From: Shigella phage 2019SD1
Length of the DNA: 53,145 bases
Sequence record: MT360681
Reading direction: 5' to 3' (one strand)
Position 1 is the first letter of the stretch; the number at the start of each line of letters is the position of its first letter. Positions 4,777 to 53,145 of this stretch are shown piece after piece. The position numbers were made by a program, and so were the translations under genes. Under the pieces are notes generated by a model. The model was given only the letters and a program-made list of their open reading frames with translations. It was not told the DNA's origin and did not search any database.

Positions 4777-5724
4777 ATGGAGGAAGAAATTCCGCCGTCT
4801 ATGGAAAAAGAAAAATTTGATCAGCTAGATGCGGATATTGTTTCCAGCTATCTGGCTACTCGCGGCGTTAAGGGTGATGCTTCTGATATGGGTATCTGGA
4901 CTGCGCAAGAGCTTCACAAGATCCGCTCAGCTGCTTACGAGAAAGAGTATCCGGCAGGTTCTGCGCTTCGTGTATTCCCAGTAACTAATGAGCTTTCTGA
5001 TACTGATAAGACTTTTGAATATCAGATGTTTGACAAGGTTGGTTACGCAAAAATTATCGCTGATTACACCGATGACCTGCCTACCGTTGACGCGCTGATG
5101 TCTAGCGAATTCGGTAAAGTGTTCCGCTTGGGTAACGCGTTCTTGATCTCAATTGACGAAATCAAGGCTGGTCAGCGCACTGGTAAGAGCCTTTCCACTC
5201 GCAAGGCAAACGCAGCGCAAAACGCTCATGATCAGGAAGTTAACCGCACGGTGTTTAAGGGTTCAAAGCCGCACAAGATTATTTCAGTTTTCGATCATCC
5301 TAACTTAACCAAGATTCCATCAACTGGATGGTTGAGCAACGATGAGAACACCAAGTTCCTGAAACGGCTTCGGGCGATCTTGAAAAGGCTATTGAAACTA
5401 TCGAGAAGATCACTAATGGTCAGCACCGCGCAACAAATATCCCGCAAGGTTCTTTCCGTTCGAATGGAAAACACCACTGAAAGTTATCTGGAATACTTCC
5501 AGAAACAAAACAGCGGAATCACCATTGACTCAATCGCAGAGCTTGAGGATATTGATGGCACTGGAACGAAAGGTTGCACGGTATATGAGAAAGACCCGAT
5601 GAACATGTCTATCGAAATTCCAGAAGCATTTAACATGCTTCCGGCGCAACCAAAAGATCTGCATTTCAAAGTTCCGTGCACTTCAAAATGTACTGGTCTG
5701 ACGATTTATCGTCCTTTACGCTAG
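4777..5724 (+). CDS. Major capsid protein (probable), with an internal frame disruption near 5360-5450
   Basis: 315-aa ORF in head module; sequence character of phage major head proteins; an alternative frame reads ..SGDLEKAIETIEKITNGQHRATNIP.. through the region where the main frame looks scrambled. Confidence 0.45.
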   Translation: MEEEIPPSMEKEKFDQLDADIVSSYLATRGVKGDASDMGIWTAQELHKIRSAAYEKEYPAGSALRVFPVTNELSDTDKTFEYQMFDKVGYAKIIADYTDDLPTVDALMSSEFGKVFRLGNAFLISIDEIKAGQRTGKSLSTRKANAAQNAHDQEVNRTVFKGSKPHKIISVFDHPNLTKIPSTGWLSNDENTKFLKRLRAILKRLLKLSRRSLMVSTAQQISRKVLSVRMENTTESYLEYFQKQNSGITIDSIAELEDIDGTGTKGCTVYEKDPMNMSIEIPEAFNMLPAQPKDLHFKVPCTSKCTGLTIYRPLR

Positions 5725-6125: not shown

Positions 6126-6569
6126 ATGGTTGATGAATTTTTCACTGACGCAGAAATCACGCAGCAAATCGTGAAATTGGCGCCACCGATGAAGCAGATT
6201 GATCCAGATTTAATGGAGGCATGGATTGATCTTGCAAAGGAATTTGTTTGCAAGAAGCGGTTTAAAGAATCATATCCCAAAGCGGTTGCTCTTTATACGT
6301 TGCACCTTATGACGCTTGACGGAGCGATGAAGCAAGAAGGGAAAGCGGTTGATGAATTTTTCACTGACGCAGAAATCACGCAGCAAATCGTGAAATTGGC
6401 GCCACCGATGAAGCAGATTGATCCAGATTTAATGGAGGCATGGATTGATCTTGCAAAGGAATTTGTTTGCAAGAAGCGGTTTAAAGAATCATATCCCAAA
6501 GCGGTTGCTCTTTATACGTTGCACCTTATGACGCTTGACGGAGCGATGAAGCAAGAAGGGAAAGCGTAG
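6126..6569 (+). CDS. Hypothetical head-tail connector-like protein; exact tandem 219-bp duplication (6129-6347 and 6348-6566)
   Basis: ORF with 73-aa unit repeated twice in frame. Confidence 0.3.
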
Positions 6570-7816: not shown

Positions 7817-8268
7817 AGTTTGACTATGCCGAAGTTGACACAGAATACTTGTCATTGGATCGCAAATGCGTTTCTTATATTGGAATGATTCAGGTTGGCA
7901 TTGTGTTTCCACCGGTTACGGAACTGACAGGCCGCGCGTTCTCGCTAAAGAGATTGCGCAATTCTTTTACGATGGTAAAATGCTGGAGCATGGTTATATA
8001 TATGAGGGTGCAAGAGTTCACAAGCCGCTCAAGAGTGAAAGCGGTTGGCTTCTCCTGCGTTTCTTATATTGGAATGATTCAGGTTGGCATTGTGTTTCCA
8101 CCGGTTACGGAACTGACAGGCCGCGCGTTCTCGCTAAAGAGATTGCGCAATTCTTTTACGATGGTAAAATGCTGGAGCATGGTTATATATATGAGGGTGC
8201 AAGAGTTCACAAGCCGCTCAAGAGTGAAAGCGGTTGGCTTCTCCTGTAAGATTTTATGTTCGAATTGA
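7813..8268 (+). CDS. Hypothetical tail completion / terminator-like protein; tandem ~189-bp duplication (7866-8054, 8055-8243); reading frame ambiguous
   Basis: Two overlapping ORFs in different frames both span the duplicated unit. Confidence 0.2.
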   Translation: MKFDYAEVDTEYLSLDRKCVSYIGMIQVGIVFPPVTELTGRAFSLKRLRNSFTMVKCWSMVIYMRVQEFTSRSRVKAVGFSCVSYIGMIQVGIVFPPVTELTGRAFSLKRLRNSFTMVKCWSMVIYMRVQEFTSRSRVKAVGFSCKILCSN

Positions 8269-9632: not shown

Positions 9633-12286
9633 CGCTTGGGGTTGATGTATCTCAACTCAACAATGCTGTAAAGTCTTTGCAGCAATTCAAAAAGGCAAAC
9701 GACGACGCAAAGGGAAGCGTTGAGAACTTTGTTGATTCAGAGGTTGTTGCAAGGCAAAGAGCTAAACAATTGGCTGAGGAATTGGCGAAGCAGAAACAGG
9801 AATTTAAAGCAATTCAGTCTGCAATAGATCCAACAGCCAGCAAGATGGATAAGTTGCGTCAGGCTGCGACACAGCTTGATGCACTATGGAAAAAGGAATT
9901 GTGCCGGATGATACATTCTTTGAATCCGGATGATACATTCTTTGAATTAGGTTCAATTCTTGAGACACAGCAAAACAAGCTGATCGCAACGAAAAAGGCG
10001 CTAACAGAAGAAGGCCGAGCGGCGATTGAGGAAGCAAAGAATAAAGCGGGGCAGAGGCTGAGGCCAGAAAGTTCATTGCGGCATTACAGGCACAAGCAGA
10101 CGCAGCGGAAAAACAAAATCAGAGCTTGTAGAAATGAGAGCCGCACAACTTGGAGTAGAGCCGCACAACTTGGAGTTAGTGCTGAGGCAGCGCCATTTAT
10201 TGCAAAAATGAAGGAGCAGGAAAAACAAGCCTCAAAACTTGGCGTTTCTATGGGGCAGTACAAGCAAGCAATGGCGCAATTACCAATGCAGATCACTGAC
10301 GTTGTTACTTCTCTTGCTTCAGGAATGCCAGTATGGATGGTCGCAATCCAGCAGGGTGGACAGATCAAGGACTCATTCGGTGGTGTTGCGAATACGTTCA
10401 AAGCACTAATGACATTTGTCACGCCGTTAAGTGTAGGAATGACGGCGCTGACTGGTGCTCTTGGTTATGCTGCATATAATGCATACAAAACAAATGCACA
10501 ACTGAAGGAGATCACAAAACCGTTCAGGGGTAACTGGTCTTTCTGGTCAGAACAATACGCAGGCTTGACGCTTGGGGTTGATGTATCTCAACTCAACAAT
10601 GCTGTAAAGTCTTTGCAGCAATTCAAAAAGGCAAACGACGACGCAAAGGGAAGCGTTGAGAACTTTGTTGATTCAGAGGTTGTTGCAAGGCAAAGAGCTA
10701 AACAATTGGCTGAGGAATTGGCGAAGCAGAAACAGGAATTTAAAGCAATTCAGTCTGCAATAGATCCAACAGCCAGCAAGATGGATAAGTTGCGTCAGGC
10801 TGCGACACAGCTTGATGCACTATGGAAAAAGGAATTGTGCCGGATGATACATTCTTTGAATCTGCAATTTGCGAAGAACACCTATGAGGATATAGGAAAG
10901 ATCGTAAAAGATGCGAATAAGGATATGGCGGAACGAGCAGCACGCATCGACAGAGAAAACCTTTCCTTAAACAGAGTTCGAGCGGCGCAAGAGGCTTTAA
11001 ACAAAGCCATAGAGGATCAGAAGAACGTAGCAAGGACAGCAGACGAAGAGTTGAAAAACGAGCGGCTGAGAACGTTGAGTTCAGGCGAAAAGAGCTTGAA
11101 GAGGCGAAGAAGGCGCAGCAGCAAAGGAGAAAGTTGGCGGAGTTGTAAAAGCACCAACAGAGCAGCTGCAAAAGAAAAGGCCGAGATAGGCGATCAGATT
11201 GTTTTGCAACAGAGAAAGAACAAGCAATACCGGACGGGCTTAAATTCATTCAGCAAACTTCAGATGCCATTGATGCTAAACTTGCGACAGTCTGGAGCTA
11301 CAGATATGCAAATCAAGCGAGAGCTTGAGTTGAAGAAGTTGCGAACTGATTATGTTGCTGGCGGGGTAGTATCGACGATGAAATTTATCAGCAGATGGAA
11401 GCAAAGCGATATGTACGGCAACGTGCAAGATATTGCAAGCGAGGCGCTCAACGGTCTAACCAACCAAATGGCTACATTCCTTGCAACAGGCAAGGCGAAC
11501 TTTAAGAGCTTCGCAACGTCAATCATCCAAATGATTATCCAGATGATCACGAAGATGGTTATCTTTAATGCCATATCTGGTGCGATTGGCGGTGACACTT
11601 GGACGATTGGAAGCCTTCTTAAAATGTTGGATTTGCAACTGGTGGATACACTGGCGACGGCGGGAAGTATGAGCCAGCAGGTGTTGTCCATAAAGGCGAG
11701 TTTGTCAACGAAGGAGGCCACGAAGCGGATCGGAGTTGGAAATCTTTACAAAATGATGCGCGGTTATGCAAATGGCGGCGTTGTTGGTGGCACTTCATAC
11801 ACTGGCGGCGGAATTTCATCAGGAGCAACAAACCTTAATATTGGTGGGATTAGCGTTGATATTAACAACGGAAACGATCCAAAAGGGTTGGAGACTGGCG
11901 TAAAAATGATTTTCACTGATATGATTAAGCGTTCCTGTACGCAGGGTGGGGAAGTTTACGAATTTGTTATGTCTAAGCGGGGTGATAGTGAAACTACGAA
12001 GGAGGCCACGAAGCGGATCGGAGTTGGAAATCTTTACAAAATGATGCGCGGTTATGCAAATGGCGGCGTTGTTGGTGGCACTTCATACACTGGCGGCGGA
12101 ATTTCATCAGGAGCAACAAACCTTAATATTGGTGGGATTAGCGTTGATATTAACAACGGAAACGATCCAAAAGGGTTGGAGACTGGCGTAAAAATGATTT
12201 TCACTGATATGATTAAGCGTTCCTGTACGCAGGGTGGGGAAGTTTACGAATTTGTTATGTCTAAGCGGGGTGATAGTGAAACTTGA
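9608..12286 (+). CDS. Tail tape measure protein; contains displaced duplicate (9612-9925 = 10548-10862), tandem 288-bp C-terminal duplication (11708-11995, 11996-12283) and short tandem repeats near 9900 and 10140
   Basis: 892-aa ORF with hydrophobic segment ..[21 protein letters not shown].. typical of tape measure proteins; position after chaperone genes. Confidence 0.7.
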
Positions 12287-12930
12287 GCAATTCAAATGGT
12301 GCACGCAAACGCAAGGAGGCGGCGGCACTATGACCACATCAAATAACGACAGGAAATCTCATTTGGTAATGGTTACACGCAGGTTGCTTCAGGAGGGTTT
12401 AACACGGTACGCAGGGAGTTTTCCATTGTCTATGTTGGCAAGGATTACAGAGACGTTGTTGACTTCCAAACTTGAGCAATTCAAATGGTGCACGCAAACG
12501 CAAGGAGGCGGCGGCACTATGACCACATCAAATAACGACAGGAAATCTCATTTGGTAATGGTTACACGCAGGTTGCTTCAGGAGGGTTTAACACGGTACG
12601 CAGGGAGTTTTCCATTGTCTATGTTGGCAAGGATTACAGAGACGTTGTTGACTTCCTGAATGGACACAGGCTGAAGCCGTTTTATGGTTTATGCCTGACG
12701 GTCAACCCGGTCTATTCAGGGTAAAATCTGGTAGCGTTGGATTAACTCCAATATCAGCAACCGTTCAGGAAGTGAAAGCAACATTTACTGAGCAATTTAC
12801 ATCAATGCAACCTGACGGTCAACCCGGTCTATTCAGGGTAAAATCTGGTAGCGTTGGATTAACTCCAATATCAGCAACCGTTCAGGAAGTGAAAGCAACA
12901 TTTACTGAGCAATTTACATCAATGCAATAA
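12234..12930 (+). CDS. Minor tail protein (lambda M-like, tentative); two tandem duplications (12282-12470/12471-12659 and 12694-12810/12811-12927)
   Basis: Position between tape measure and L-like gene; split into two ORFs each made of an exactly repeated unit. Confidence 0.3.
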
Positions 12931-15150: not shown

Positions 15151-18100
15151 GTGGCTGAAAATATGATAACGGGCAGTAAGGGTGGATCATCAAAACCTTA
15201 TGTTCCGAAAGAGATGGAAGATAACCTGATCTCAATCAACAAAATCAAAATCCTTCTTGCCGTTTCCGATGGCGAGTGCGATCCAAATTTTACACTTCGC
15301 GATCTGTATCTTGATGATGTTCCGGTAATTGCAGACGACGGAACTGTTAACTACCGTGGTGTGAAAGCTGAATTTCGACACGGAACACAAACGCAAGATT
15401 ACATCCGGGGTTTACTGACACATCAAGCGAAGACGCTGGCGCGTGACATTACGACGACAAATCCTTATGTAATTTCTGTAACCAACAAAACATTATCGGC
15501 TATCAGAATAAAAATTCTAATGCCAACAGGCATTAAGCAAGAGGATAACGGCGATCTTGTAGGTGTTAAGGTCACTTATGCTGTTGATATGGCTGTTGAC
15601 GGAGACTCTTACAAAGAAGTATTGATAGACACCATCGAAGGTAAAACGCGTTCCGGTTACGACAGAAGTCGAAGGATTGACCTTCCGGCATTTAATGATC
15701 GCGTATTGCTTAGGGTTAGAAGGGTTACGGCAGACAGCACATCATCTCGCGTTACTGATCTGATTAAGCTACAAAGTTACGCTGAGGTTATTGATGCAAA
15801 ATTCCGTTACCCTCTGACTGGTCTTGTATACGTTGAATTTGACAGTGAGTTGTTCCTAACCAGATCCACGCTGGCGCGTGACATTACGACGACAAATCCT
15901 TATGTAATTTCTGTAACCAACAAAACATTATCGGCTATCAGAATAAAAATTCTAATGCCAACAGGCATTAAGCAAGAGGATAACGGCGATCTTGTAGGTG
16001 TTAAGGTCACTTATGCTGTTGATATGGCTGTTGACGGAGACTCTTACAAAGAAGTATTGATAGACACCATCGAAGGTAAAACGCGTTCCGGTTACGACAG
16101 AAGTCGAAGGATTGACCTTCCGGCATTTAATGATCGCGTATTGCTTAGGGTTAGAAGGGTTACGGCAGACAGCACATCATCTCGCGTTACTGATCTGATT
16201 AAGCTACAAAGTTACGCTGAGGTTATTGATGCAAAATTCCGTTACCCTCTGACTGGTCTTGTATACGTTGAATTTGACAGTGAGTTGTTCCTAACCAGAT
16301 CCCGAGAGTATCACGGTTCATGGGATGGTACTTTCAAGAAAGCGTGGTCGAACAATCCGGCGTGGGTTCTTTATGACATTATCACAAACCAGCGATACGG
16401 ATTAGATCAGCGAGAACTTGGCGTGCAGGTTGACAAATGGAGTCTTTACGAAGCGGCGCAATACTGCGATCAGAAAGTGCCTGACGGAAAAGGCGGCACA
16501 GAGCCGCGTTATCTATGCGACGTTGTTATTCAAAGCCAGATTGAGGCTTATCAGCTTATTCGTGATATTTGCTCAATCTTCCGAGGCATGAGCTTTTGGA
16601 ATGGGGAGAGCCTGTCAATCGTCATTGATAAGCCGCGCGATCCGTCGTACATCTTCACCAATGACAACGTTGTTGATGGCGATTTTCAGTACACAACAGC
16701 AAGCGAAAAGAGCATGTACACGCAGTGCAACGTGACGTTCGACGACGAACAAAACATGTATCAACAGGACGTGGAGGGCGTATTCGACACTGAGGCAGCA
16801 TTGCGCTTTGGATACAATCCAACAAGCATAACAGCTATCGGATGTACACGCAGGAGTGAGGCTAATCGGCGCGGTAGATGGATACTAAAACCAACTTGCG
16901 CAGCACTACGGGATACTAAAACCAACTTGCGCAGCACTACGGTAAACTTTGCTACTGGACTGGAAGGCATGATCCCATCAATAGGTGATGTTATCGCGGT
17001 GTCAGATAACTTTTACAGCAGCAACCTGAAATTAAACCTTTCAGGGCGCGTGATGGAAGTTTCCGGCTTGCAGGTGTTCGTCCCGTTTAAGATTGACGCG
17101 CGACCGGTGATTTCATTATCATCAACAAGCCTGACGGAAAGCCAGTTAAGCGCACAATCTCAAAGGGTTGTGTCGTGGGATAAAGTACCTTACGCATCGC
17201 TGTATGAAATGCAATGGCGAAAAGGTGATGGCAACTGGCTGAATACACCACAGACCGCAAACAAAGAAATTGAGGTTGAAGGTATTTATTCAGGCAACTA
17301 CCGGCCAAACACTTCATTGTCGGATGCGGTTAAGTTAACTGGCGCGCCGGGCTCCCCACCTTACCAGTCAGCGAAGCTGTCACAATTCTTGACCGGGCGA
17401 TGTAGAACCGGAAGCGGAAACAGATCTCACCCTTACCGGCCAAACACTTCATTGTCGGATGCGGTTAAGTTAACTGGCGCGCCGGGCTCCCCACCTTACC
17501 AGTCAGCGAAGCTGTCACAATTCTTGACCGGGCGATGTAGAACCGGAAGCGGAAACAGATCTCACCCTTACCGGTTTGGCATTCGTGTTAAGTGGGGTAT
17601 GCCAGAAGGGAGCGGAGACACGGCATACATTGAGCTTCACCAGTCGCCAGATGGAACAGCGGAAAACTCAAGCCTGTTAACGCTGATACCATACCCACAA
17701 TATGAATATTGGCACGGTACGCTTCCGGCTGGTCATGTTGTATGGTATCGAATCAGAAGCGTGGACAGGATCGGCAATGTTTCCGGTTGGACGGATTTTG
17801 TTCGCGGCATGGCTTCAGATGATGTTGAGGCTGTTTTAGGCAATATTCTTGATAAGATTTTTGATACAGAAGCAGGAAAGGATCTGAAAGAGAATGCCAT
17901 TGATAGCGCAAACAAAATCAAGGATCAGGCGCAAAGCATCATTCAAAACGCATTGGCGAATGATGCAGACGTTAGGATCATGAGGAAGGAAAACGGAAAA
18001 CGCAAAGCCGAGTTTAGGCAATCAATCCAATTGATCGCAAGTGAAACTGAGGCGCGCGTTACCGCAATGACGCAACTCAAGGCTGAATTTGACGAGGAAA

Positions 18101-19828: not shown

Positions 19829-19885
19829 TGTTGGTGTCTCCTTAGTTGTTGTTAGTTGTAACTATACATGATCTTACGGTAGGCG

Positions 19886-22409: not shown

Positions 22410-22934
22410 ATGCATATCATTACTGGTGAGATCCGAAAAGAGCCGCGAGTAAAGCAAATGCCTAACGGCAGCACACTTTATGTGGTTGAACTTTCAGAGC
22501 GATACAAAGATAAAGATGGAAACTGGCAATATACAAACTACAGTTTCTTTTTAATGCGAAAACAGAAGGTCTTAAGGGTTGGTATGATGAGGCGTTCCGG
22601 TTGGCAAGGTTATTTCTGTATCTTGCATATCATTACTGGTGAGATCCGAAAAGAGCCGCGAGTAAAGCAAATGCCTAACGGCAGCACACTTTATGTGGTT
22701 GAACTTTCAGAGCGATACAAAGATAAAGATGGAAACTGGCAATATACAAACTACAGTTTCTTTTTAATGCGAAAACAGAAGGTCTTAAGGGTTGGTATGA
22801 TGAGGCGTTCCGGTTGGCAAGGTTATTTCTGTATCTTGTGACACTCTGCGCATTGAAACGCGAGAACACAACGGAAAGATGTATGACAAAGCAATCAACC
22901 TCCTATGGACTTTGACGACGATATTCCTTTCTGA
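22410..22934 (+). CDS. ssb: Single-stranded DNA-binding protein; exact tandem 213-bp duplication of N-terminal OB-fold segment and frame disruption before the C-terminal tail
   Basis: CAGGAGAATGAATA plus ATG; N-terminal ..TGEIRKEPRVKQMPNGSTLYVVELSERYKDKDGNWQYT.. OB-fold-like; a downstream frame ends ..MDFDDDIPF-stop, the hallmark SSB acidic tail. Confidence 0.55.
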
Positions 22935-23221: not shown

Positions 23222-23843
23222 GAGTTGATTGCTGTTCTGGCATTACAGGCCATGGGCTAATTGATTCCCTTTCTGCTACTGGCTTTTCAGGTTCAATTCC
23301 TAAAAACTTTCCTACAAACTCACCAACAAAATTTGAGCTATCGCTTACATAAACATGCATCCTGTCCAGATCTGCAACAGTAACGCTATTTGGTGCAATC
23401 ATGATCCTCTGCTGGTGAAAACCGATATACATCACATTGGCTGGACGTTCAAGAGTCCCCATATTTGGCGCAATTACGCCCATTATCCAACAATAATGAA
23501 TATTGCCATCAAGAGGCTCACATCCGGCGTTAAGCCAGTTTACTTTCTGGTGTGGGAATGCCATTGATGAATCAGTAGCGTCACGCCGTAACGACCATTT
23601 AACGCCGCCAATCTCAATAATTTGTTTAGGCCTCATTCCGTTGAATTGAGTCACGCCAGCGCCATTTTGATTAATGTTTTGCATTACTACTCGCGGCAAA
23701 TGCACGCTCGGTAACAGGTAACGCAACGCGAGATCTGATTCGCCAACAGTTTGCTGATTCTCAGGCTGTTTTGATTTGCGATATGAAAGCTCAGTTGCAG
23801 GAAGCGCGTTTTGCTCTTTCTCAGGCAAACCAGACCGCTGCAC
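23193..23843 (-). CDS. Hypothetical protein (216 aa)
   Basis: Minus-strand ORF; upstream end runs into perfect palindrome. Confidence 0.3.
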   Translation of the reverse strand: MQRSGLPEKEQNALPATELSYRKSKQPENQQTVGESDLALRYLLPSVHLPRVVMQNINQNGAGVTQFNGMRPKQIIEIGGVKWSLRRDATDSSMAFPHQKVNWLNAGCEPLDGNIHYCWIMGVIAPNMGTLERPANVMYIGFHQQRIMIAPNSVTVADLDRMHVYVSDSSNFVGEFVGKFLGIEPEKPVAERESISPWPVMPEQQSTHEGKENDEK

Positions 23844-24003
23844 TGAATTGCAAAATCAACCGTGTCGAGCAATTGGTAAACTTCAAGTTGCCTACTCCTC
23901 AGACTCCGCCTACTGGCTGTTGCGCAACAGCCAGTAGGCGGAGTCTGAGGAGTAGGCAACTTGAAGTTTACCAATTGCTCGACACGGTTGATTTTGCAAT
24001 TCA
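23844..24003. repeat. Perfect 160-bp palindrome (two 80-bp inverted arms, centre at 23923/23924)
   Basis: Right arm is exact reverse complement of left arm. Confidence 0.85.
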
Positions 24004-24399
24004 ATATAAAACATTTGTCAGCGATATGTAAGCAACTGGCATAAAGACGAAAAAGCGCAGCCTGAGCCGCGCTTGAGTTAAAAGATTGCATCCTCTCAGA
24101 TATGATTGGAGTTGATGAAAACGGCGAGGAGTACGTTGATCATCAAATTGAAACGGATCGCACAGATGACACTCTGGCGCTCGATAGCAACGTTATGCTA
24201 ACTGATATGGCTTGCGCTATGGTTTACATGGGAGGGATGATCGAAAACCAGAAAAAGGAGATAGACGAATTAAAGGCGGCTGTTGCTGCACTGCTCAATA
24301 AAACTTTACTCCCTACTGGTGGTGGTTTTGGTGGCGAAGCTGGCGCGGCTGGTCTTGGCGGCGCTGTTGGCGGCCTGATTGGGTCATGGTTTGGTAACG

Positions 24400-24870
24400 G
24401 CTTTAATGGTCGTGGTGGTTATGGTGGTGATGGTGCGGCTGTTGCTGTCGGTGCTAACGCTGTTCTTGATGGTATTAATAACATCCAGACAGGTGTAAAC
24501 AACCCGGTCTGCAAACTCTGCAAGGCCAAAACTCCACAAACCTTGCCGTTGAGCGCTCCGCCGCATCAACCTTTAACGGCATTACCAGCCAGAATACGCA
24601 AAACCTGCTTGCATCGGTGCAAGGCTTCGCCGGACCATAACAGGAGACCGGTACAAGTTTCACATATTGGGAATCGACATTCATCATATCTTGAGCAATC
24701 AGGCCGTAACGCTGAATGTCATCTCGCTTATACTTAAACATTGTCGGAAGCCATTGCATGACGCGATCATAACTTTCTTTTCCATCCGTATAAACGATGT
24801 CTTTTTCAGATCTCTGTCAGACGTTGGATTTTTGCAAAATCGTAGTTTCCTGTTCCAAACTGGCCATTAC
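24400..24870 (-). CDS. Fragment resembling the C-terminal intramolecular chaperone (peptidase S74-like) domain of tail fibres/spikes
   Basis: Minus-strand translation ..SEKDIVYTDGKESYDRVMQWLPTMFKYKRDDIQRYGLIAQDMMNVDSQYVKLVPV..; no clear start; downstream frame breaks. Confidence 0.35.
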
Positions 24871-25104
24871 CGACGGTGGGTTTTGACGAGCAATCTCTAT
24901 GCTAGACAGATCTGAAAGGTTCGCATCTTTTCTTAGTAGATTTTCAGCATTAAGGCTTTTAGCAAATTCCTCAGCCTCATTTCGCGCCGTAACAGCGCCG
25001 TTTTTGCAGTTTCAGCGGCGTTATTTGCAGATTGAGCGCCAGTCAGACAAACGGCGTGGTCTGGTACGTATTATACAGAGTATGTTCCTTTTACGCTGAA
25101 ATCT

Positions 25105-25156
25105 GACGCTTGTCCGGTTCTGTAAATTGCGCAATTTACAGAACCGGACAAGCGTC
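25105..25156. repeat. Perfect 52-bp palindrome
   Basis: GACGCTTGTCCGGTTCTGTAAATTGC / GCAATTTACAGAACCGGACAAGCGTC. Confidence 0.8.
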
Positions 25157-25337
25157 AAAACAACGACGCAGGATGGTCGCCAATCGTTTGTGGAGGTAGT
25201 CAGTCGCAATGGGGTTATGCTCTAAAATCAGCTTTCGGAACTATTGCTAATAACCAAGCTTGGCCTGATACAGCTATACACCACTCATTCGCCCCGGTGC
25301 AACAATCTTTTTCATTGATGCACCGTTTCAAGCGGCT

Positions 25338-27494
25338 GTGATTGGTGATAACGCTCATAACAGGATGTTTTATTTTCTCATACCGGGACGTCGGGTTGGT
25401 CCTTTTGATAGTGTTGGTGCTAATACGATTATTTACTCGCCAGACGGATCTTATAGGTTGGTTATCAGAGATGACGGATTACTAGTTTATCAGAAAGGTG
25501 ACGGAACTGAAACCAAGCCATTTGAAATTGCGACTGGTGGGACTGGGGCAACTGATGCAGCAGGTGCTCGCAATAATCTTGGGCTTGGCAGCTATACACC
25601 ACTCATTCGCCCCGGTGCAACAATCTTTTTCATTGATGCACCGTTTCAAGCGGCTGTGATTGGTGATAACGCTCATAACAGGATGTTTTATTTTCTCATA
25701 CCGGGACGTCGGGTTGGTCCTTTTGATAGTGTTGGTGCTAATACGATTATTTACTCGCCAGACGGATCTTATAGGTTGGTTATCAGAGATGACGGATTAC
25801 TAGTTTATCAGAAAGGTGACGGAACTGAAACCAAGCCATTTGAAATTGCGACTGGTGGGACTGGGGCAACTGATGCAGCAGGTGCTCGCAATAATCTTGG
25901 GCTTGGGACTGGGCAAGACGTTCAATTTAAGAGCATTACGGCTACAGACGGCGATATTCTAGTTCCGCAAACTCACGTTGTAGGATGTAAAACTAATACT
26001 GGCGGTAACAAAAATATCTATCTGACGAACTTACCGGAGAATCAACTTCAGGTGGGTGGGACTGGCGCTCAATCTGCAAATAACGCCGCTGAAACTGCAA
26101 AAACGGCGCTGTTACGGCGCGAAATGAGGCTGAGGAATTTGCTAAAAGCCTTAATGCTGAAAATCTACCATGTATTGCTGGGCGACGCTCAAGGTTATAT
26201 CACTGGATACGATACGAAATGGCGAGAGCAATTAACACTCATTCGCCCCGGTGCAACAATCTTTTTCATTGATGCACCGTTTCAAGCGGCTGTGATCAGT
26301 GAAGTTATCAGCGATACACAAATCCGCGCTATCACAACTGGCGGCGCTGAAATTGGGCGGAGCAACTACATTATTTTGCTGCATGACTCAATCACTGTTG
26401 ATGGCCCGGCGCAAGATGTTGCGGAAACTCTGCGTTACTATCAAAGCAAAGAAACTCAGATCGAGGAAGCTATTGAATTTTTCAAAAACTTTGATCTAAA
26501 ACAGTTGCAAGATCTGGCTAATCAGGTTAAAGGTGATGCAGAGAAAACAGCCAATGATCGTGCTGCTACTGAACAACTGAAAAACGACACTCAACATATA
26601 AAGGATTCTGCTGTTGCTGAAACAAACCAGATTAAAGCAGACACTAACGCAATCAAGGCGCAAACACAACAGATTAAAGATTCTGCGATAACGGAAGTTA
26701 ATTCCGCACGCGATCAAGGTGTTTTAGCTGTAAACCAGACTAAAGATCAGGCTGTTTCAGAAATGAATCAGATAAAGGGTGATGTTTCGAATCTGAAAAC
26801 GAAGCTATTTCAGCAAGGGATTCAGCCCAGCAATACATGGCAATGGACGCTCAAGGTTATATCACTGGATACGATACGAAATGGCGAGAGCAATATCAGT
26901 GAAGTTATCAGCGATACACAAATCCGCGCTATCACAACTGGCGGCGCTGAAATTGGGCGGAGCAACTACATTATTTTGCTGCATGACTCAATCACTGTTG
27001 ATGGCCCGGCGCAAGATGTTGCGGAAACTCTGCGTTACTATCAAAGCAAAGAAACTCAGATCGAGGAAGCTATTGAATTTTTCAAAAACTTTGATCTAAA
27101 ACAGTTGCAAGATCTGGCTAATCAGGTTAAAGGTGATGCAGAGAAAACAGCCAATGATCGTGCTGCTACTGAACAACTGAAAAACGACACTCAACATATA
27201 AAGGATTCTGCTGTTGCTGAAACAAACCAGATTAAAGCAGACACTAACGCAATCAAGGCGCAAACACAACAGATTAAAGATTCTGCGATAACGGAAGTTA
27301 ATTCCGCACGCGATCAAGGTGTTTTAGCTGTAAACCAGACTAAAGATCAGGCTGTTTCAGAAATGAATCAGATAAAGGGTGATGTTTCGAATCTGAAAAC
27401 GAAGCTATTTCAGCAAGGGATTCAGCCCAGCAATACACATGCGTTTTCTCCCGTGTTGCATGTTAATGTCAATGCAGATAATAGCATTTGCTAA
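25338..27494 (+). CDS. Long tail fibre protein; 318-bp tandem duplication (25271-25588, 25589-25906), 600-bp tandem duplication (26297-26838 and 26897-27438) and frame disruption near 26100
   Basis: N-terminal ..GGTGATDAAGARNNLGLG.. motif common to phage tail fibres; long coiled-coil-like repeats rich in A/T/N/Q/K. Confidence 0.6.
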   Translation: MIGDNAHNRMFYFLIPGRRVGPFDSVGANTIIYSPDGSYRLVIRDDGLLVYQKGDGTETKPFEIATGGTGATDAAGARNNLGLGSYTPLIRPGATIFFIDAPFQAAVIGDNAHNRMFYFLIPGRRVGPFDSVGANTIIYSPDGSYRLVIRDDGLLVYQKGDGTETKPFEIATGGTGATDAAGARNNLGLGTGQDVQFKSITATDGDILVPQTHVVGCKTNTGGNKNIYLTNLPENQLQVGGTGAQSANNAAETAKTALLRREMRLRNLLKALMLKIYHVLLGDAQGYITGYDTKWREQLTLIRPGATIFFIDAPFQAAVISEVISDTQIRAITTGGAEIGRSNYIILLHDSITVDGPAQDVAETLRYYQSKETQIEEAIEFFKNFDLKQLQDLANQVKGDAEKTANDRAATEQLKNDTQHIKDSAVAETNQIKADTNAIKAQTQQIKDSAITEVNSARDQGVLAVNQTKDQAVSEMNQIKGDVSNLKTKLFQQGIQPSNTWQWTLKVISLDTIRNGESNISEVISDTQIRAITTGGAEIGRSNYIILLHDSITVDGPAQDVAETLRYYQSKETQIEEAIEFFKNFDLKQLQDLANQVKGDAEKTANDRAATEQLKNDTQHIKDSAVAETNQIKADTNAIKAQTQQIKDSAITEVNSARDQGVLAVNQTKDQAVSEMNQIKGDVSNLKTKLFQQGIQPSNTHAFSPVLHVNVNADNSIC

Positions 27495-27495
27495 G

Positions 27496-27516
27496 TCAAA
27501 AAACCCGCAATGCGGG
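27496..27516 (-). terminator. Hairpin with T-run on minus strand
   Basis: CCCGC-AAT-GCGGG preceded by AAAAAA on plus strand. Confidence 0.35.
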
Positions 27517-27535
27517 GCGAAAGTAGCAGTGACAT

Positions 27536-28470
27536 GATCCAACCAACTCCGGTATCATTACCGCACACGTTGCAGATCGCACCGCCATCGCCTTTTTATC
27601 GCCAAGTTTATCCGTCCATCTGAAGCGATCCTTTCCGCCGCAGTGGGGCTTTTCATTGATGAAGAAGGTAAACAGTCTTTTCTAGCAAAGGACTACACGC
27701 GCGGGTCGGTTGTGAGAACAGGAAACACCGATAAGACTATCTATCTTTGCGTTGACTGGATTGATGCGCAACATATTCACCTTGCAACTGGTCAAGAGGT
27801 TTGGGCCTGCTTCGATGCAACTAATATTGAGATTGTAGCTTACAGGTATAAAGGCAACAGAAGAATGCGAGTTGTCTGTAAGAGTACAGACCGTGACGCT
27901 ATCATAGCTGCCGAGGAAAGAGGTCTTGAAATTATGATGCCGATTAATGATAATTACAGGCAAGGGATAGACAGGAAGGTTTACAAACCTGAATCTCTTC
28001 TCAAGCTAACCGGAGAACCTTACAGCGAAGTGATCAATATTTTGGGCCGTTTTCTTGGGAAAGTTCCACAGGACTATAGAATCAAGGCAAATAAGCGAGT
28101 ATCTCGTGATTCTGGTTATTCGTTTGGGAAACAGGCAAGTCATGAATGCTGCGAGCGCGTTATGTCAAAAACATTAAAATTTGATCGCACGCCGTTAAGC
28201 ACATATGAAGGAATATACCCGCCTGAAGATGGTTATTATGAATGCGGCGTAAAAGATGGTCGATACATTCACGCGTTACCATGTTACCGGTGCATTCAGA
28301 TGAAATTGATGATGAAATGTGCAATGTGCTTTTCATTGATGAAGAAGGTAAACAGTCTTTTCCCCCACTGCGGCGGAAAGGATCGCTTCAGATGGACGGA
28401 TAAACTTGGCGATAAAAAGGCGATGGCGGTGCGATCTGCAACGTGTGCGGTAATGATACCGGAGTTGGTT
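27536..28470. repeat. Segment bounded by ~115-bp perfect inverted repeats (27536-27650 and 28354-28470) plus 34-bp direct repeats (27648-27682, 28320-28353)
   Basis: Exact reverse-complement identity of the two outer arms. Confidence 0.8.
27643..28319 (+). CDS. Hypothetical protein encoded inside the inverted-repeat-flanked segment
   Basis: Open frame across the internal segment; GTG start; no recognisable motifs. Confidence 0.25.
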
Positions 28471-28622
28471 GGATCACAAGATTGATGCTTGCCGTTAAAA
28501 ACTTCATTTGGAAGACCGCAAATACTTTGTAGCGCCTCACGCCACAATCCTTGCATATATGGGAGTACATCTTCCTTTTGATAAACCATAAAGTTTTCGT
28601 TATTCATATACACCTCAAACAA
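28354..28622 (-). CDS. Hypothetical protein, N-terminal part only (frame ends inside inverted repeat)
   Basis: Minus-strand start at 28622; protein-like N-terminus MFEVYMNNENFMVYQKEDVLPYMQGLWREALQ.. Confidence 0.25.
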
Positions 28623-31206: not shown

Positions 31207-31303
31207 TGCAATATGTGAATCACATCATGCCACCATCGCGTGTGACTCACCGCAAGACTAGCAAGGAGAAGATAATTTGTACAAGAAGGAGTTTAATTAT
31301 GGC

Positions 31304-31808
31304 AATGACTGATAAAGGCGATTATCTGGAGTTTTACGAAAGAGATCCGACGGATACGCTAAAGGAGGAATCACACCAGATCGGGGCGTTTCAATGGTTA
31401 ACTTATGCTCATCCTGAATTTCTTGCCGGCATACGAAAACGAGGGCGACAAGGGATCGCCACCGCAATGATGGATCAGCAAGCAGGACTCGTTAAGGGAG
31501 TAAGTGATTTCATCATCCTGATTGGATTAAAGGCCGTTATCCGTTCGCGGCAAGCAATGACTGATAAAGGCGATTATCTGGAGTTTTACGAAAGAGATCC
31601 GACGGATACGCTAAAGGAGGAATCACACCAGATCGGGGCGTTTCAATGGTTAACTTATGCTCATCCTGAATTTCTTGCCGGCATACGAAAACGAGGGCGA
31701 CAAGGGATCGCCACCGCAATGATGGATCAGCAAGCAGGACTCGTTAAGGGAGTAAGTGATTTCATCATCCTGATTGGATTAAAGGCCGTTATCCGTTCGC
31801 GGCAATAG
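31304..31808 (+). CDS. Hypothetical nuclease-like protein (VRR-NUC-like, tentative); exact tandem 252-bp duplication (31303-31554, 31555-31806)
   Basis: AGGAG RBS plus ATG at 31304; ..GLVKGVSDFIILIG.. loosely resembles VRR-NUC motif. Confidence 0.3.
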
Positions 31809-35935: not shown

Positions 35936-36026
35936 TATCAGCAATCGCGATCGCTGTTATTTAATATGCGTGGTTGTGTTAATTGTGCTGATTTGTCTTT
36001 ACTGGAGAGAAGAAAAGGAGGCTTAA
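35927..36026 (+). CDS. Small membrane protein (possible spanin fragment)
   Basis: ATG at 35927 overlapping end of endolysin; hydrophobic stretch; frame interrupted. Confidence 0.2.
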
Positions 36027-36040
36027 CGCCTCCTTTGTTA
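36015..36040. terminator. Bidirectional rho-independent terminator between endolysin region and convergent minus-strand gene
   Basis: GGAGGC-TTAAC-GCCTCC followed by TTTGTTA. Confidence 0.55.
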
Positions 36041-36280
36041 TTCAATTCTCTTTACAGTAACCAACAAAACGCCGTCATCATCACACAAATTATGCTCTGA
36101 TATGTTAAACGCTCGCATGTCAGAATGAATGAGCGTTAACATTGCGTGCATGAAGTCTTCATGTGAGATTTGAGAAGTAGCGCAAAACTTAAGAATTTCA
36201 TCTATCAGTTTACTTTCCATGATTTTCATGATAACCAAGTTTAGCCTCTGCTTGTTCTCTTGCCATAATTGCATCATCAA
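36038..36280 (-). CDS. Hypothetical protein (80 aa)
   Basis: Minus-strand ORF ending at the bidirectional terminator. Confidence 0.4.
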   Translation of the reverse strand: MMMQLWQENKQRLNLVIMKIMESKLIDEILKFCATSQISHEDFMHAMLTLIHSDMRAFNISEHNLCDDDGVLLVTVKRIE

Positions 36281-36324
36281 TGCTTGAAAATAATCCTAAA
36301 TGAACACTCTTACCTTTATCATAT

Positions 36325-36978
36325 ATGGTTGCATGCCATTTTTTCTTTCTTCCTCCAGCACACCCCTATTCCATTGTCATATATAAATATTTTATTCCAA
36401 TCGATTGGAATAAAATATTTATATATGACAATGGAATATTGTGGGAAATGCACAATGGAAAAATACCAGAAGGAATGGAGATAGATCATATATGGCACAA
36501 TAGGTGGGATAACAGGATTGAAAATTTAAGGCTTGCATCAAGATTAGAGAACAGCAAAAACGTATCTCTACTAAAAAGAAATAAATCTGGTAGGGTTGGG
36601 GTGTGCTGGAGGAAGAAAGAAAGGTGGAGAAACAGAAGGGGAAAAGCAAAGCACGGAAGCGTTGCTGGATGTGTAGATAAAAATGGCTATGTAAGAATAA
36701 GGTATAATGGTGTATTGCTTTTGGCACATAGGATAATATGGGAAATGCACAATGGAAAAATACCAGAAGGAATGGAGATAGATCATATATGGCACAATAG
36801 GTGGGATAACAGGATTGAAAATTTAAGGCTTGCATCAAGATTAGAGAACAGCAAAAACGTATCTCTACTAAAAAGAAATAAATCTGGTAGGGTTGGGGTG
36901 TGCTGGAGGAAGAAAGAAAAAATGGCATGCAACCATATACATATCTTTTCCTTAGAGCTTTTATTTGTTGTCTATTAA
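36325..36978 (+). CDS. HNH homing endonuclease with AP2-like DNA-binding domain; internal ~180-297-bp duplication (36442-36620 approx = 36739-36917)
   Basis: ..NGYVRIRYNGVLLLAHRIIWEMHNGKIPEGMEIDHIWHNRWDNRIENLRLASRLENSKN.. classic HNH motif; ..KSGRVGVCWRKK.. AP2-like. Confidence 0.65.
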   Translation: MVACHFFFLPPAHPYSIVIYKYFIPIDWNKIFIYDNGILWEMHNGKIPEGMEIDHIWHNRWDNRIENLRLASRLENSKNVSLLKRNKSGRVGVCWRKKERWRNRRGKAKHGSVAGCVDKNGYVRIRYNGVLLLAHRIIWEMHNGKIPEGMEIDHIWHNRWDNRIENLRLASRLENSKNVSLLKRNKSGRVGVCWRKKEKMACNHIHIFSLELLFVVY

Positions 36979-43631: not shown

Positions 43632-44774
43632 TTGTGGTGCTTAAGCGTGGATAACATCAAGTATCCGATCACGTTCCACACGGTTGGTAACTCAACTATT
43701 CGATTCACATCTCGCGACAATGGCGTTTATAGCGACGGTCAGAAATCAGAGTTGAAAGTTGATTTCTTTGTCAATGGTCACAACAAATTCAATCCGCACA
43801 ACGAAAAAGATAAGGTGTACTACGTGGAAGATATTACAAAACACTTGTTTGGCGAAACTCCATTCGGCGGCGGGAAGACGTCAATTCAACAAATCATTGA
43901 CGATCAGATCCGCAAGGCAGCCGTTGAAATGAAAGCGCCCGGAGGCTGGCGTATTGATAAGGGCGCCTTTACCATTCAAGAAATCGTAACGCAGGGCGCG
44001 ATTGAAGACATGCCGCTTGGCGCTTCAATCATCGGCATCAAAGACGACAACGGCGACTGGCAGGATGTTTCATTCCTGTTAAGCAGATCGAAGTACACGA
44101 CGACCTGTTTTGCCTCCCGGCGCATCATGGCAGCTACAAGGGCAAAGCCTTTGCCGCAGAGCTTGACATCAAGCGCGGAACGATTGTTAAGTGGAAGGCA
44201 AAAGTGTAAAGATAACATCAAGTATCCGATCACGTTCCACACGGTTGGTAACTCAACTATTCGATTCACATCTCGCGACAATGGCGTTTATAGCGACGGT
44301 CAGAAATCAGAGTTGAAAGTTGATTTCTTTGTCAATGGTCACAACAAATTCAATCCGCACAACGAAAAAGATAAGGTGTACTACGTGGAAGATATTACAA
44401 AACACTTGTTTGGCGAAACTCCATTCGGCGGCGGGAAGACGTCAATTCAACAAATCATTGACGATCAGATCCGCAAGGCAGCCGTTGAAATGAAAGCGCC
44501 CGGAGGCTGGCGTATTGATAAGGGCGCCTTTACCATTCAAGAAATCGTAACGCAGGGCGCGATTGAAGACATGCCGCTTGGCGCTTCAATCATCGGCATC
44601 AAAGACGACAACGGCGACTGGCAGGATGTTTCATTCCTGTTAAGCAGATCGAAGTACACGACGACCTGTTTTGCCTCCCGGCGCATCATGGCAGCTACAA
44701 GGGCAAAGCCTTTGCCGCAGAGCTTGACATCAAGCGCGGAACGATTGTTAAGTGGAAGGCAAAAGTGTAAATAG
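43632..44774 (+). CDS. Hypothetical early protein; exact tandem ~561-bp duplication (43650-44210, 44211-44771); C-terminus frame-disrupted
   Basis: 380-aa ORF consisting of two identical 187-aa units. Confidence 0.35.
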   Translation: MWCLSVDNIKYPITFHTVGNSTIRFTSRDNGVYSDGQKSELKVDFFVNGHNKFNPHNEKDKVYYVEDITKHLFGETPFGGGKTSIQQIIDDQIRKAAVEMKAPGGWRIDKGAFTIQEIVTQGAIEDMPLGASIIGIKDDNGDWQDVSFLLSRSKYTTTCFASRRIMAATRAKPLPQSLTSSAERLLSGRQKCKDNIKYPITFHTVGNSTIRFTSRDNGVYSDGQKSELKVDFFVNGHNKFNPHNEKDKVYYVEDITKHLFGETPFGGGKTSIQQIIDDQIRKAAVEMKAPGGWRIDKGAFTIQEIVTQGAIEDMPLGASIIGIKDDNGDWQDVSFLLSRSKYTTTCFASRRIMAATRAKPLPQSLTSSAERLLSGRQKCK

Positions 44775-45836: not shown

Positions 45837-46133
45837 GTGGTTAATAAAGTTGAGTTTTTCAAAGCGGTAGAAAAGATTGACGGCGCGCCAAGTTTCTTTG
45901 CTATCCATTCCATTGACGGCGAAGACGTTGCATACAACGTGATTAGTCGAGACGGTATATCAAAACTTAGCGACCGGTGGGTTATATTGTGGCGAACGGT
46001 AAATGTGCATGGCGGTTATATTGTGGCGAACGGTAAATGTGCATGGCTAGATTCGCAACTAGAGCCGCGCCGCCGCGACATGCAAAATCCAGTTCTGCTT
46101 TACACGCTGGTAATTGAAGGAGTCAACAAATGA
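45837..46133 (+). CDS. Hypothetical protein; 41-bp tandem repeat at about 45968-46049
   Basis: GTG start after ACGAGGA RBS. Confidence 0.35.
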   Translation: MVNKVEFFKAVEKIDGAPSFFAIHSIDGEDVAYNVISRDGISKLSDRWVILWRTVNVHGGYIVANGKCAWLDSQLEPRRRDMQNPVLLYTLVIEGVNK

Positions 46134-51589: not shown

Positions 51590-52982
51590 AATGAGCGAAT
51601 ATTCATTCGAAAAGATGATCCGCATTTGGTTTCAACTTCTCGGGGCAAAGGTTCTTAGGAAACTGGCATTTCAGTTACCTATGCAGCGAAGTGCAGGAGC
51701 TATGGCCGGAAAGCTGGCAAAGGCGAGCGCAAAGGACTTGATTGTAACCGATGTCGGCAAGGTTAAATTGCAAGTTAACTCGCGTTCTATCGGTGGTCAG
51801 GTTACTGGTCTGCGTGGCGGCTACATGGATGATGGATTTACTGGTATGCTGGTTCTTGATGATCCAGACAAGCCGGATGACATGCTTTCTAAGGTGAAGC
51901 GCGAAGCCGGACACATGCGCCTAAAGAACACGGTGCGATCACGTCGAATGAAGGACACAACGCCAATCGTAATGGTCCAGCAACGGCTACACGTCAATGA
52001 TTCAACATGGTTCATGACAAACGGCGGCATGGGCGGCATCCAGTTTAAGGTGGTCAGTATTCCGGCGCTCGTTACTAAGGAATATCGCGAAACGCTTCCT
52101 GATTGGTTAAAGCCTGAGTTTGATCGCGATGTTTTATCCAGTAAGCCAGTAATGATTGATGGTGTTGCTCATTATTCATTCTGGCCTGCTAAGAAAGCGC
52201 GGAGGAATTACTTGCACTTCGAAATGCTGATCCGTACACGTTCGCCAGTCAGTATCAGCAACAGCCTGTTGCGCTTGGCGGTAACGTGTTTAAAACGGAG
52301 TGGTTTCAGTATTACGGCAGCAGCGAGAAATGCACGCTACCAAAACCGGATCGCTTTGAGTATACATTTATCACGGTTGATACCGCGCAGAAAACGGGTG
52401 AGCTTAACGACTACTCCGTATAAAGATCGCGTTTACTTCATTGATGGTGTTCGCGGAAAATGGGAAGCACCAGACCTTGAAACTAATTTTGTTGCGTTCG
52501 TTAATCAGTGCTGGAAGCGTAATAAAGAATGCGGAACGTTGCGAAGGATTCATGTTGAAGATAAGTCATCTGGCACTGGCTTGATTCAGAGCGCAGCGAA
52601 AAAATTATATAAAGATCGCGTTTACTTCATTGATGGTGTTCGCGGAAAATGGGAAGCACCAGACGAAACTAATTTTGTTGCGTTCGTTAATCAGTGCTGG
52701 AAGCGTAATAAAGAATGCGGAACGTTGCGAAGGATTCATGTTGAAGATAAGTCATCTGGCACTGGCTTGATTCAGAGCGCAGCGAAAAATTATGATCAAG
52801 ATCAATCCCGTTCAGCGAGACTGGCTGAGATACTCGCTGAAGTTGCGGCGTTCACATTCGATGATTCGCATCCTCATGATGATATTGTTGATAACATCAT
52901 TGATGCTGTTAACATTGAAATGAACATGGCAGATGATCCGGTAGGAAGAATGAAAAAATTGGCAGGTTTGCGGAACAAATAA
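51590..52982 (+). CDS. Terminase large subunit (N-terminal region uncertain; internal frame change near 52195; 180-bp tandem duplication 52425-52610 approx)
   Basis: ..ADPYTFASQYQQQPVALGGNVFKTEWFQYYG.. and C-terminal ..FTFDDSHPHDDIVDNIIDAVN.. typical of terminase nuclease domain; Walker A-like ..SRGKGS.. only visible in a shifted frame near 51600. Confidence 0.55.
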
Positions 52983-53034: not shown

Positions 53035-53145
53035 ATGGTTTCCCGGCTTTACTGTTGACGGCGTGGCAGATGAGGCGGCATTCCGTTCCTTGTGGGATGA
53101 GAAGCGACTCAATGCAAAATTATTGATGCGCTTTGTTGGTCGCGT
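53035..53145 (+). CDS. Portal protein N-terminal segment (continues at position 179 after wrap)
   Basis: ATG at 53035 after AGGAAAG-like RBS and terminase terminator; downstream sequence identical to 179-255 apart from one A-run length difference; the frame needs a 1-bp correction. Confidence 0.35.

Follow-up and report, generated by a model that had tools for sequence, protein, structure and literature searches.

Perfect palindromes in the deposited genome of Shigella phage 2019SD1: almost certainly artefacts of how the record was built

The deposited genome of Shigella phage 2019SD1 (MT360681) carries a perfect 160-bp palindrome inside a reading frame, and a second, shorter one close to its tail-fibre gene. 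The question raised by this locus is whether such dyads are elements of the phage DNA, products of the sequencing chemistry, or products of how the deposited sequence was put together. The window analysed here is the whole contig of 53,145 nt, which is identical with the viral contig IMGVR_UViG_2974632794_000001. It represents a Hanrivervirus (Drexlerviridae, T1-like) with ~94-95% identity, by BLAST, to slyngel, SFP17, pSf-1, vojen, and others.

The palindromes and the genes they are made of

The long palindrome has the form given in the first-pass annotation, a description made from the sequence alone: two arms of 80 nt each (23844-23923 and 23924-24003), 100% complementary, with a spacer of zero and a centre that reads ...GGCTGTTGC|GCAACAGCC.... 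Its placement inside a minus-strand ORF is likewise borne out (23687-24091, 134 aa). By symmetry, a plus-strand ORF (23771-24031) also encloses it, and both of these ORFs are chimeric. The second palindrome, first described as 52 bp at 25105-25156, exists and is perfect, but that description covers its inner part; the true extent is 54 bp (25104-25157, 27+27 nt, loop zero). A third zero-loop palindrome, of 72 bp (36+36 nt), lies in an HNH endonuclease gene. The window also contains four long perfect inverted repeats whose arms (109, 114, 120, and 45 nt) are separated by loops, and ~30 perfect direct duplications of 57-561 nt are spread across its length. The two palindromes noted at first are part of a contig-wide phenomenon and not isolated elements. 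The coordinates of the features are collected in Table 1.

Both arms of the 160-bp palindrome come from a gp39-like gene, the left one being the last 80 nt of a block of this gene that is flipped to sense. The native 3' end of the gene is ...CCT ACT GGC TGT TGC GGC TGA, and the arm stops at the codon boundary after TGC. The centre of the palindrome is located at this boundary (...TGT TGC|), after which the closest relatives go on with GGC TGA and some others read directly ...TGC TAA, which places the centre one codon before the stop of the closest relatives. It would fall exactly at the ORF end on the unproven assumption that the 2019SD1 gene ends ...GCC*, like the related loci L018, L019, and L022. 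At 24003, where the right arm stops on its outer side and the native sequence would go on with GTG..., there is codon alignment on neither strand, and the junction microhomology of the fold-back at the centre is ~2 nt. Slyngel 27157-27548, which holds gp38 and the gp39 terminator, is missing from the contig at this locus, and so is the native terminator of the relatives (AAGCGCCTTTCGGGGCGCTTTT). Further to the right, a tail-fibre fragment stops where its native continuation is TAA, and the gp39-like gene from codon 5 onwards (24303-24635) continues the reading frame of that fragment, giving the chimeric published ORF29 (24102-24737).

The native place of the intergenic block between these pieces is downstream of the tail-fibre gene. 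On its minus strand the block has a terminator-like hairpin (24053-24074; AAGCGCGGCTCAGGCTGCGCTT followed by TTTCGTCTTT), which is probably the genuine tail-fibre terminator.

The centre of the 54-bp palindrome lies exactly between the position of the tail-fibre ATG and codon 2, with the arms arranged head-to-head; relatives at this site read ...GCGC ATG GCA ATT TAC... and have no dyad. The chimeric ORF30 to its right remains open over at least 8 rearrangement junctions, and the scrambled primase that follows is flanked on both sides by a perfect 114-nt inverted repeat.

The gene that bears the third palindrome is an HNH homing-endonuclease gene (HNH_3 and a weak AP2 match) at 36013-36978, between the lysis genes and the helicase, and is scrambled in the 2019SD1 contig. 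It is also found in Fulano1 (locus L027, 1501-1974), the BEK phages, and tonnikala and is absent from slyngel and SFP17, a real strain difference.

Table 1. Features of the 2019SD1 window discussed in the text, with positions in the window unless another sequence is named
Feature	Position	Strand	Basis or remark
gp39-like gene (encoding a glycine-rich hypothetical protein), C-terminal ~69 codons flipped to sense	23716..23923	+	= slyngel 27757->27549 (BLAST block map)
Right arm of the 160-bp palindrome, same 80 nt in native unflipped orientation	23924..24003	-	slyngel 27549->27629
Native intergenic block	24004..24083		slyngel 28336-28417, abutting the right arm, ~700 nt skipped
Fragment from the C-terminus of the tail fibre (Peptidase_S74 chaperone region), flipped to sense	24097..24302	+	last sense codon (...LLNK) kept, stop removed
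gp39-like gene from codon 5, directly after an ATG	24303..24635	+	native preceding sequence ...TCAGATATG
Arm of a perfect 109-nt inverted repeat (partner 26060-26168)	24936..25044		internal tail-fibre segment, SFP17 11544-11653, both orientations present
54-bp palindrome, left arm: tail-fibre codons 2-10 in antisense	25104..25130	-	reference comparison
54-bp palindrome, right arm: tail-fibre codons 2-10 in sense (GCA ATT TAC AGA ACC GGA CAA GCG TCA = AIYRTGQAS)	25131..25157	+	SFP17 10855 ATG, 10858 GCA...
Perfect tandem duplication, 318 nt x2	25271..25906	+	inside chimeric 'tail fibre' ORF30 (25338-27494)
Scrambled primase: 3 blocks flipped to sense in reference left-to-right order (C-terminal, middle, N-terminal)	27535..28476		published ORF31
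Third palindrome, head-to-head HNH endonuclease codons 2-13 (GAT TGG AAT... = DWNKIFIYDNGI)	36367..36438		centre exactly after the native ATG position
Doubled-body ORF8	6126-6569		perfect tandem
Doubled-body ORF11	7866-8249		perfect tandem
Doubled-body ORF16	12276-12659		perfect tandem
Doubled-body ORF17	12691-12930		perfect tandem
Doubled-body ORF26	22410-22841		perfect tandem
Doubled-body ORF34	31299-31808		perfect tandem
Doubled-body ORF58	43647-44774		perfect tandem
Motif GTTTTAACAAAAAGTGCTATT, copies in the window	31922, 32970, 39293, 39978, 41469, 42137, 43225, 48524		weaker copies at 19884, 29135, 38768
Motif GTTTTAACAAAAAGTGCTATT, copies in slyngel (L001)	369, 34712, 35732, 38964, 41808, 43859, 46145, others

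Relatives and the biological roles of palindromes

Some phages use palindromes as operators, terminators, and protelomerase targets. The dyads of 2019SD1 are present in the sequence as deposited, and the long one had been read in the first-pass annotation as a possible cruciform, origin-associated, or protein-binding element and the short one as a bidirectional terminator or an operator; a hairpin-telomere-type site would belong to the same family of readings. Comparison with relatives speaks against all of them. In 14 relatives the 80-nt arm is single-copy; a stop codon comes 0-2 codons after it, with an intrinsic terminator behind the stop in most of them. A perfect inverted repeat of at least 25 nt is found in the homologous region of none of 24 related sequences (2 complete relatives and 22 related IMG/VR loci), and for this reason chance cannot produce the palindromes. 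A 70-nt query across the 160-bp centre found, among 50,697 phage genomes, no record covering more than 51% of it, that is, one arm at most; the centre was found in no metagenome contig searched; and among viral contigs a 30-mer across it matches only IMGVR_UViG_2974632794_000001. Absence from close relatives and from independent assemblies, as is expected of an artefact, is what these searches found.

An intrinsic terminator is recognised by a short G+C-rich stem, a loop of 3-8 nt, a T-tract after the stem, and an intergenic position conserved in relatives. Neither palindrome was called by the terminator scan: the stems are 27 and 80 bp with a loop of zero, followed by AAAACAACG and ATATAAAAC in place of a T-tract, so a bidirectional intrinsic terminator does not describe them. 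An operator or protein-binding site would be a regulatory dyad conserved among related phages; the relatives are without the dyad, and the sequence is coding, the short palindrome being two copies of tail-fibre codons 2-10. Similarly, a cruciform, origin, or hairpin-telomere element would be maintained in the lineage together with its cognate enzyme; the dyad is absent in the lineage, and no protelomerase was found in the reference annotations of the relatives. Protelomerase sites belong to other phage groups.

Long perfect palindromes are targets of SbcCD in E. coli-type hosts and known to be unstable in SbcCD+ cells (PMC3315005, PMC4787754). In 2019SD1 each of the palindromes consists of coding sequence from a single gene, present in sense and in antisense, essential neighbours are replaced, and the portal, capsid, primase, and helicase genes of the surrounding genome are scrambled and could not be functional. 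NCBI itself marks the assembly as unverified. With the palindromes of biology (SbcCD substrates of E. coli and lambda, operators, intrinsic terminators, protelomerase telRL), these dyads share perfect symmetry only; unlike them, they are unconserved, not intergenic, devoid of loop and T-tract, and composed of duplicated coding sequence. A real biological palindrome is therefore an extremely unlikely reading of either dyad.

The disorder is not confined to the palindromes. In BLAST comparison with slyngel and SFP17 the global order of the genome is kept, and ~110 local blocks of 30-3,000 nt are duplicated, deleted, swapped, or flipped. The copies of the repeats are 100% identical and have the same one-base deletions in both; copies that agree down to shared errors and stand ~5% away from the relatives are the pattern that an artefact would leave. 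An artefact of the pipeline of a whole sequencing project was considered and rejected, since the sibling IMG isolate-type contigs 2974510867 and 2974592037 are clean over the region compared.

About 20 phage records labelled Campylobacter jejuni match the T1-like coliphage genome of 2019SD1, an unexpected host, which suggests that these records are mislabelled or contaminated.

Sequencing errors and the codon alignment of junctions

The genome of 2019SD1 was sequenced on an ONT GridION R9.4 from a ligation library, base-called with Albacore 2.3.1, and assembled with Canu 1.8, and short-read polishing was not used (PMC8590004). Canu gave a 'single scaffold of 73,606 bp', after which a '53.15 Kb genome' is reported, with genes called by RASTtk using glimmer3, prodigal, and genemark (PMC8590004). 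The ORF coordinates in Table S1 of that paper are the coordinates of the MT360681 window. An exact look-up of ORF products identified the chimeric proteins QJT70558.1 and QJT70560.1, to which NCBI gives the name 'UNVERIFIED_ASMBLY: ... [Shigella phage 2019SD1]'.

The ends of the contig overlap one another (175-229 = 53065-53119; 227-256 = 53116-53145; 1-21 = 52279-52299), which fits an imperfectly cut circularly permuted or concatemeric assembly, such as the reported 73.6-kb scaffold.

Against slyngel, the contig has 171 one-base deletions and 10 insertions, compared with 18 and 12, and zero at CCWGG, in a control pair of real phages. The deletions of the contig fall in homopolymers of at least 4 in 96 cases and at CCWGG in 25. 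Homopolymer and Dcm-site deletions are documented classes of ONT consensus error of that period (PMC6591954), and the deletion profile, as read from the sequence, has the signature of an unpolished nanopore consensus. In this respect the record is like other UNVERIFIED_ASMBLY entries of GenBank and unpolished R9.4 genomes, with the flag as a prefix on its proteins and deletions in homopolymers and at Dcm sites. Ordinary unpolished nanopore assemblies, however, are frameshifted but collinear, whereas the 2019SD1 record is also rearranged, in a manner that is aware of codons and ORFs. Neither Canu nor basecalling errors would produce a codon-aware rearrangement.

The same class of error is visible in a conserved motif of ~21 nt (GTTTTAACAAAAAGTGCTATT), of which there are about a dozen copies, in both orientations, in intergenic regions of Hanriverviruses. 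Its copies lie ~20-25 nt from a TATAAT-like box, the opposite strand reading AATAGCAC-TTTTTG-TTAAAAC...CATAAT. From its sequence and spacing it looks like a family of sigma-70-type promoters with a conserved upstream element, and like real biology. All 8 exact or 1-mismatch copies in the window read A4 where relatives have A5, a systematic homopolymer deletion; hence the idea of a 20-nt motif unique to the window was rejected, the motif being a real, conserved one in which A5 has systematically become A4.

Individual junctions show the frame being restored. For example, a CCAGG deletion shifts the frame that reaches 15432/15433, where it would run into TGA; the contig drops 'TG' and restarts at the next codon of the true frame. 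Compensating indel pairs also occur, such as -1 with about -65 (= -66) and -1 with -17 (= -18). In the major capsid gene (4777-5724), a 17-nt stretch, TGATTCCGCCGTCTATG, is gone from its native site in the middle of the gene, and directly ahead of the capsid ATG there is an insertion of TTCCGCCGTCT, a capsid piece of 14-17 nt having been relocated. A -1 deletion ~95 nt upstream compensates (sum -18), and another -1 close to the 3' end of the gene leaves the protein truncated.

Across the contig, the breakpoints are aligned with codons and located at the starts and stops of ORFs, as an ORF-based artefact predicts. Perfect direct repeats of at least 50 nt have a spacing divisible by 3 in 30 of 31 cases, and tandem duplications with unambiguous ends start exactly at a codon boundary of the spanning ORF in 7 of 8. 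Duplication junctions are free of stops on the plus strand in 33/33 cases within +-60 nt and in 32/33 within +-90 nt, where random joins give 58% and 42%. Among the 84 junctions that are non-collinear with the relatives, the native codon next to the block end is a stop at 30 (background 4.7%, p=8e-19), and the native codon preceding the block start is ATG, GTG, or TTG at 38 (background 5.7%, p=3e-25). Seven of the first 68 published ORFs, which were those scored for body doubling, have the exact structure START+body+body+STOP (ORF8, 11, 16, 17, 26, 34, and 58). Likewise, a duplication starts right after the start codon in ORF10, 40, and 64 and ends right before the stop codon in ORF4, 15, and 33. 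In the large minus-strand genes (primase, helicase, tail fibre, and regulator) the blocks are flipped to sense and their left-to-right order is kept; the 'primase' ORF that results is nevertheless uninterrupted. All three zero-loop palindromes are located at ORF ends, and two of them, in the tail-fibre and HNH endonuclease genes, are centred exactly between ATG and codon 2.

A reference-based bookkeeping of the frame at junctions gave 20 in-frame against 38 out-of-frame and was discarded, as small indels near alignment ends shift the phases and known in-frame tandem duplications were scored as 'out'; the reference-free tests were used instead. Four short perfect tandem duplications (9904-9947, 10137-10176, 16880-16942, and 45980-46047) have periods of 22, 20, 31, and 34 nt, which are not multiples of 3, and do not fit a rule of ORF bodies.

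These alignments bear on the idea that the palindromes are physical fold-back chimeras in molecules or reads (ligation inverted chimeras, unsplit template-complement reads, or amplification chimeras) that Canu carried over. The data are indeed nanopore data from a ligation library, and the mean read length is only 1.9 kb (PMC8590004; reads SRS7234126). Palindromic chimeric reads are documented for ligation preparation and for whole-genome amplification with long reads, and they give artificial, perfect, spacerless inverted duplications like those of 2019SD1, the problem addressed by Pacasus (PMC13141652, PMC6218980, PMC13265396). However, the breaks of fold-back reads should ignore reading frames and genes, and the junctions here are not random with respect to either: all three zero-loop centres are codon-aligned, with two of them exactly between ATG and codon 2, and the chance of such centres is estimated at ~1e-5 (~80 gene starts in ~50 kb). 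Chimeric reads also usually have long arms, unlike the 27-80 nt found here, and fold-back cannot explain the dozens of codon-aligned direct duplications bounded by start and stop codons. Furthermore, at a coverage of ~1,800x (92 Mb over ~51 kb, from the figures of PMC8590004), rare chimeras should lose in the consensus. Of the earlier suggestion of a fold-back artefact, the artefact survives, in the form of codon-aligned joins at ORF termini and not of random physical fold-backs, which are very unlikely to be the source.

A genuine but defective population, in which recombined non-viable molecules were packaged beside the wild type and dominated the reads, would superficially match a genome whose global order is kept and whose local order is scrambled, as local illegitimate recombination might leave it. 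This reading fails at the breakpoints, which are pinned to starts and stops with the codons removed: no known mechanism of recombination or replication takes out start and stop codons and duplicates the bodies of ORFs. Selection on frame, moreover, cannot act on scrambled proteins, for example a primase in the order C-terminal, middle, and N-terminal, and the phage was plaque-purified and grows lytically (PMC8590004). Such a population is exceedingly improbable. A related idea, selection for in-frame duplications in a viable phage, was rejected because it requires only a length divisible by 3, which does not explain codon-aligned breakpoints and the removal of starts and stops, and because essential genes are scrambled. 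It is exceedingly improbable that real DNA molecules of 2019SD1 carry the palindromes, with perhaps some of the duplications, for example as packaged products of aberrant replication or recombination; if true, it would mean that a T1-like phage tolerates or generates long perfect palindromes at gene ends.

Probable rebuilding from ORF pieces and its consequences

Both palindromes are almost certainly absent from the phage DNA and are artefacts of how the deposit was built. The observations behind this conclusion are the junction anatomy, the alignment with codons and ORFs, the nanopore error profile, the absence from relatives, the identity of the record, and the NCBI flag. As to the way it came about, one-base deletions in the Canu consensus would have broken genes into short ORF fragments, and between the 73.6-kb scaffold and the 53,145-bp deposit the sequence was most likely rebuilt or edited at the level of ORFs. 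The units would have been ORF bodies, each without its start and stop codons, and they would have been joined codon to codon, usually in sense and often twice. Plus-strand ORF bodies placed twice would give the perfect in-frame tandem duplications. For minus-strand genes, a copy flipped to sense beside an unflipped copy would give a perfect zero-loop palindrome centred on an ORF terminus: head-to-head joining at codon 2 would yield the 54-bp (tail-fibre) and 72-bp (HNH endonuclease) palindromes, and tail-to-tail joining at the last codons the 160-bp palindrome of the gp39-like gene. Overlapping operations could have truncated arms and left the longer inverted repeats with loops.

This description of ORF-based editing is held with somewhat lower confidence than the artefact itself, because 35 of the 84 junctions show neither the start nor the stop signal and because some short duplications have periods of 20-34 nt. 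The evidence shows what kind of operation took place but not which tool or person carried it out; we infer software or manual ORF-based editing as the cause, as well as the step responsible. A simple concatenation of sorted ORFs explains the tandem duplications, the block flips with order kept, and the 35-nt repeat at 27648/28328, but fails on swaps, retained stop codons, and intergenic blocks, and is kept as an approximate description. Jumps driven by k-mers (de Bruijn or Eulerian mis-traversal, or high-order Markov copying) were rejected, with a junction microhomology of only 0-9 nt. A generative origin at the level of 3-mer tokens was rejected as well: the duplication starts are not in one global phase, some periods are not multiples of 3, and the record is a real GenBank deposit of 2020-21.

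Among known procedures, protein- or ORF-guided assembly and frameshift repair of the Plass/PenguiN type (PMC11443906) come close, with codon-to-codon joins, fragments in sense, and preserved ORFs. Unlike the outcome in 2019SD1, the removal of starts and stops and the doubling of whole bodies are not described for them, and the only programs listed in the report of the phage are Albacore, Canu, and RAST (PMC8590004). PenguiN was reportedly published after the deposit of 2019SD1. Mis-assembly or mis-editing of a record is a familiar kind of problem, and NCBI has already flagged this entry; its ORF-aware flavour is unusual, and it is not biology.

The palindromes have no biological significance, and the value of the finding lies in data hygiene. 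The scrambled sequence is now present in IMG/VR (as a UViG), in RefSeq-style proteins (YP_0099014xx), in UniRef, and in nr. For example, the tail-fibre/gp39 fusion (24102-24737) is YP_009901419.1 and UniRef100_A0A6M5CDP4, and the product of the scrambled primase (27643-28485) is YP_009901421.1 and UniRef100_A0A6M5CEI8. Such chimeric proteins, together with the doubled ORFs, can seed false families, repeats, and 'novel architectures'. Perfect repeats with a period divisible by 3 and bounded by start and stop codons, along with zero-loop palindromes at ORF termini, offer a cheap reference-free screen for records of this kind. For 2019SD1 itself, what was concluded from its set of ORFs, for instance that polyvalence is explained by multiple tail-fibre proteins (PMC8590004), should be re-examined after re-assembly.
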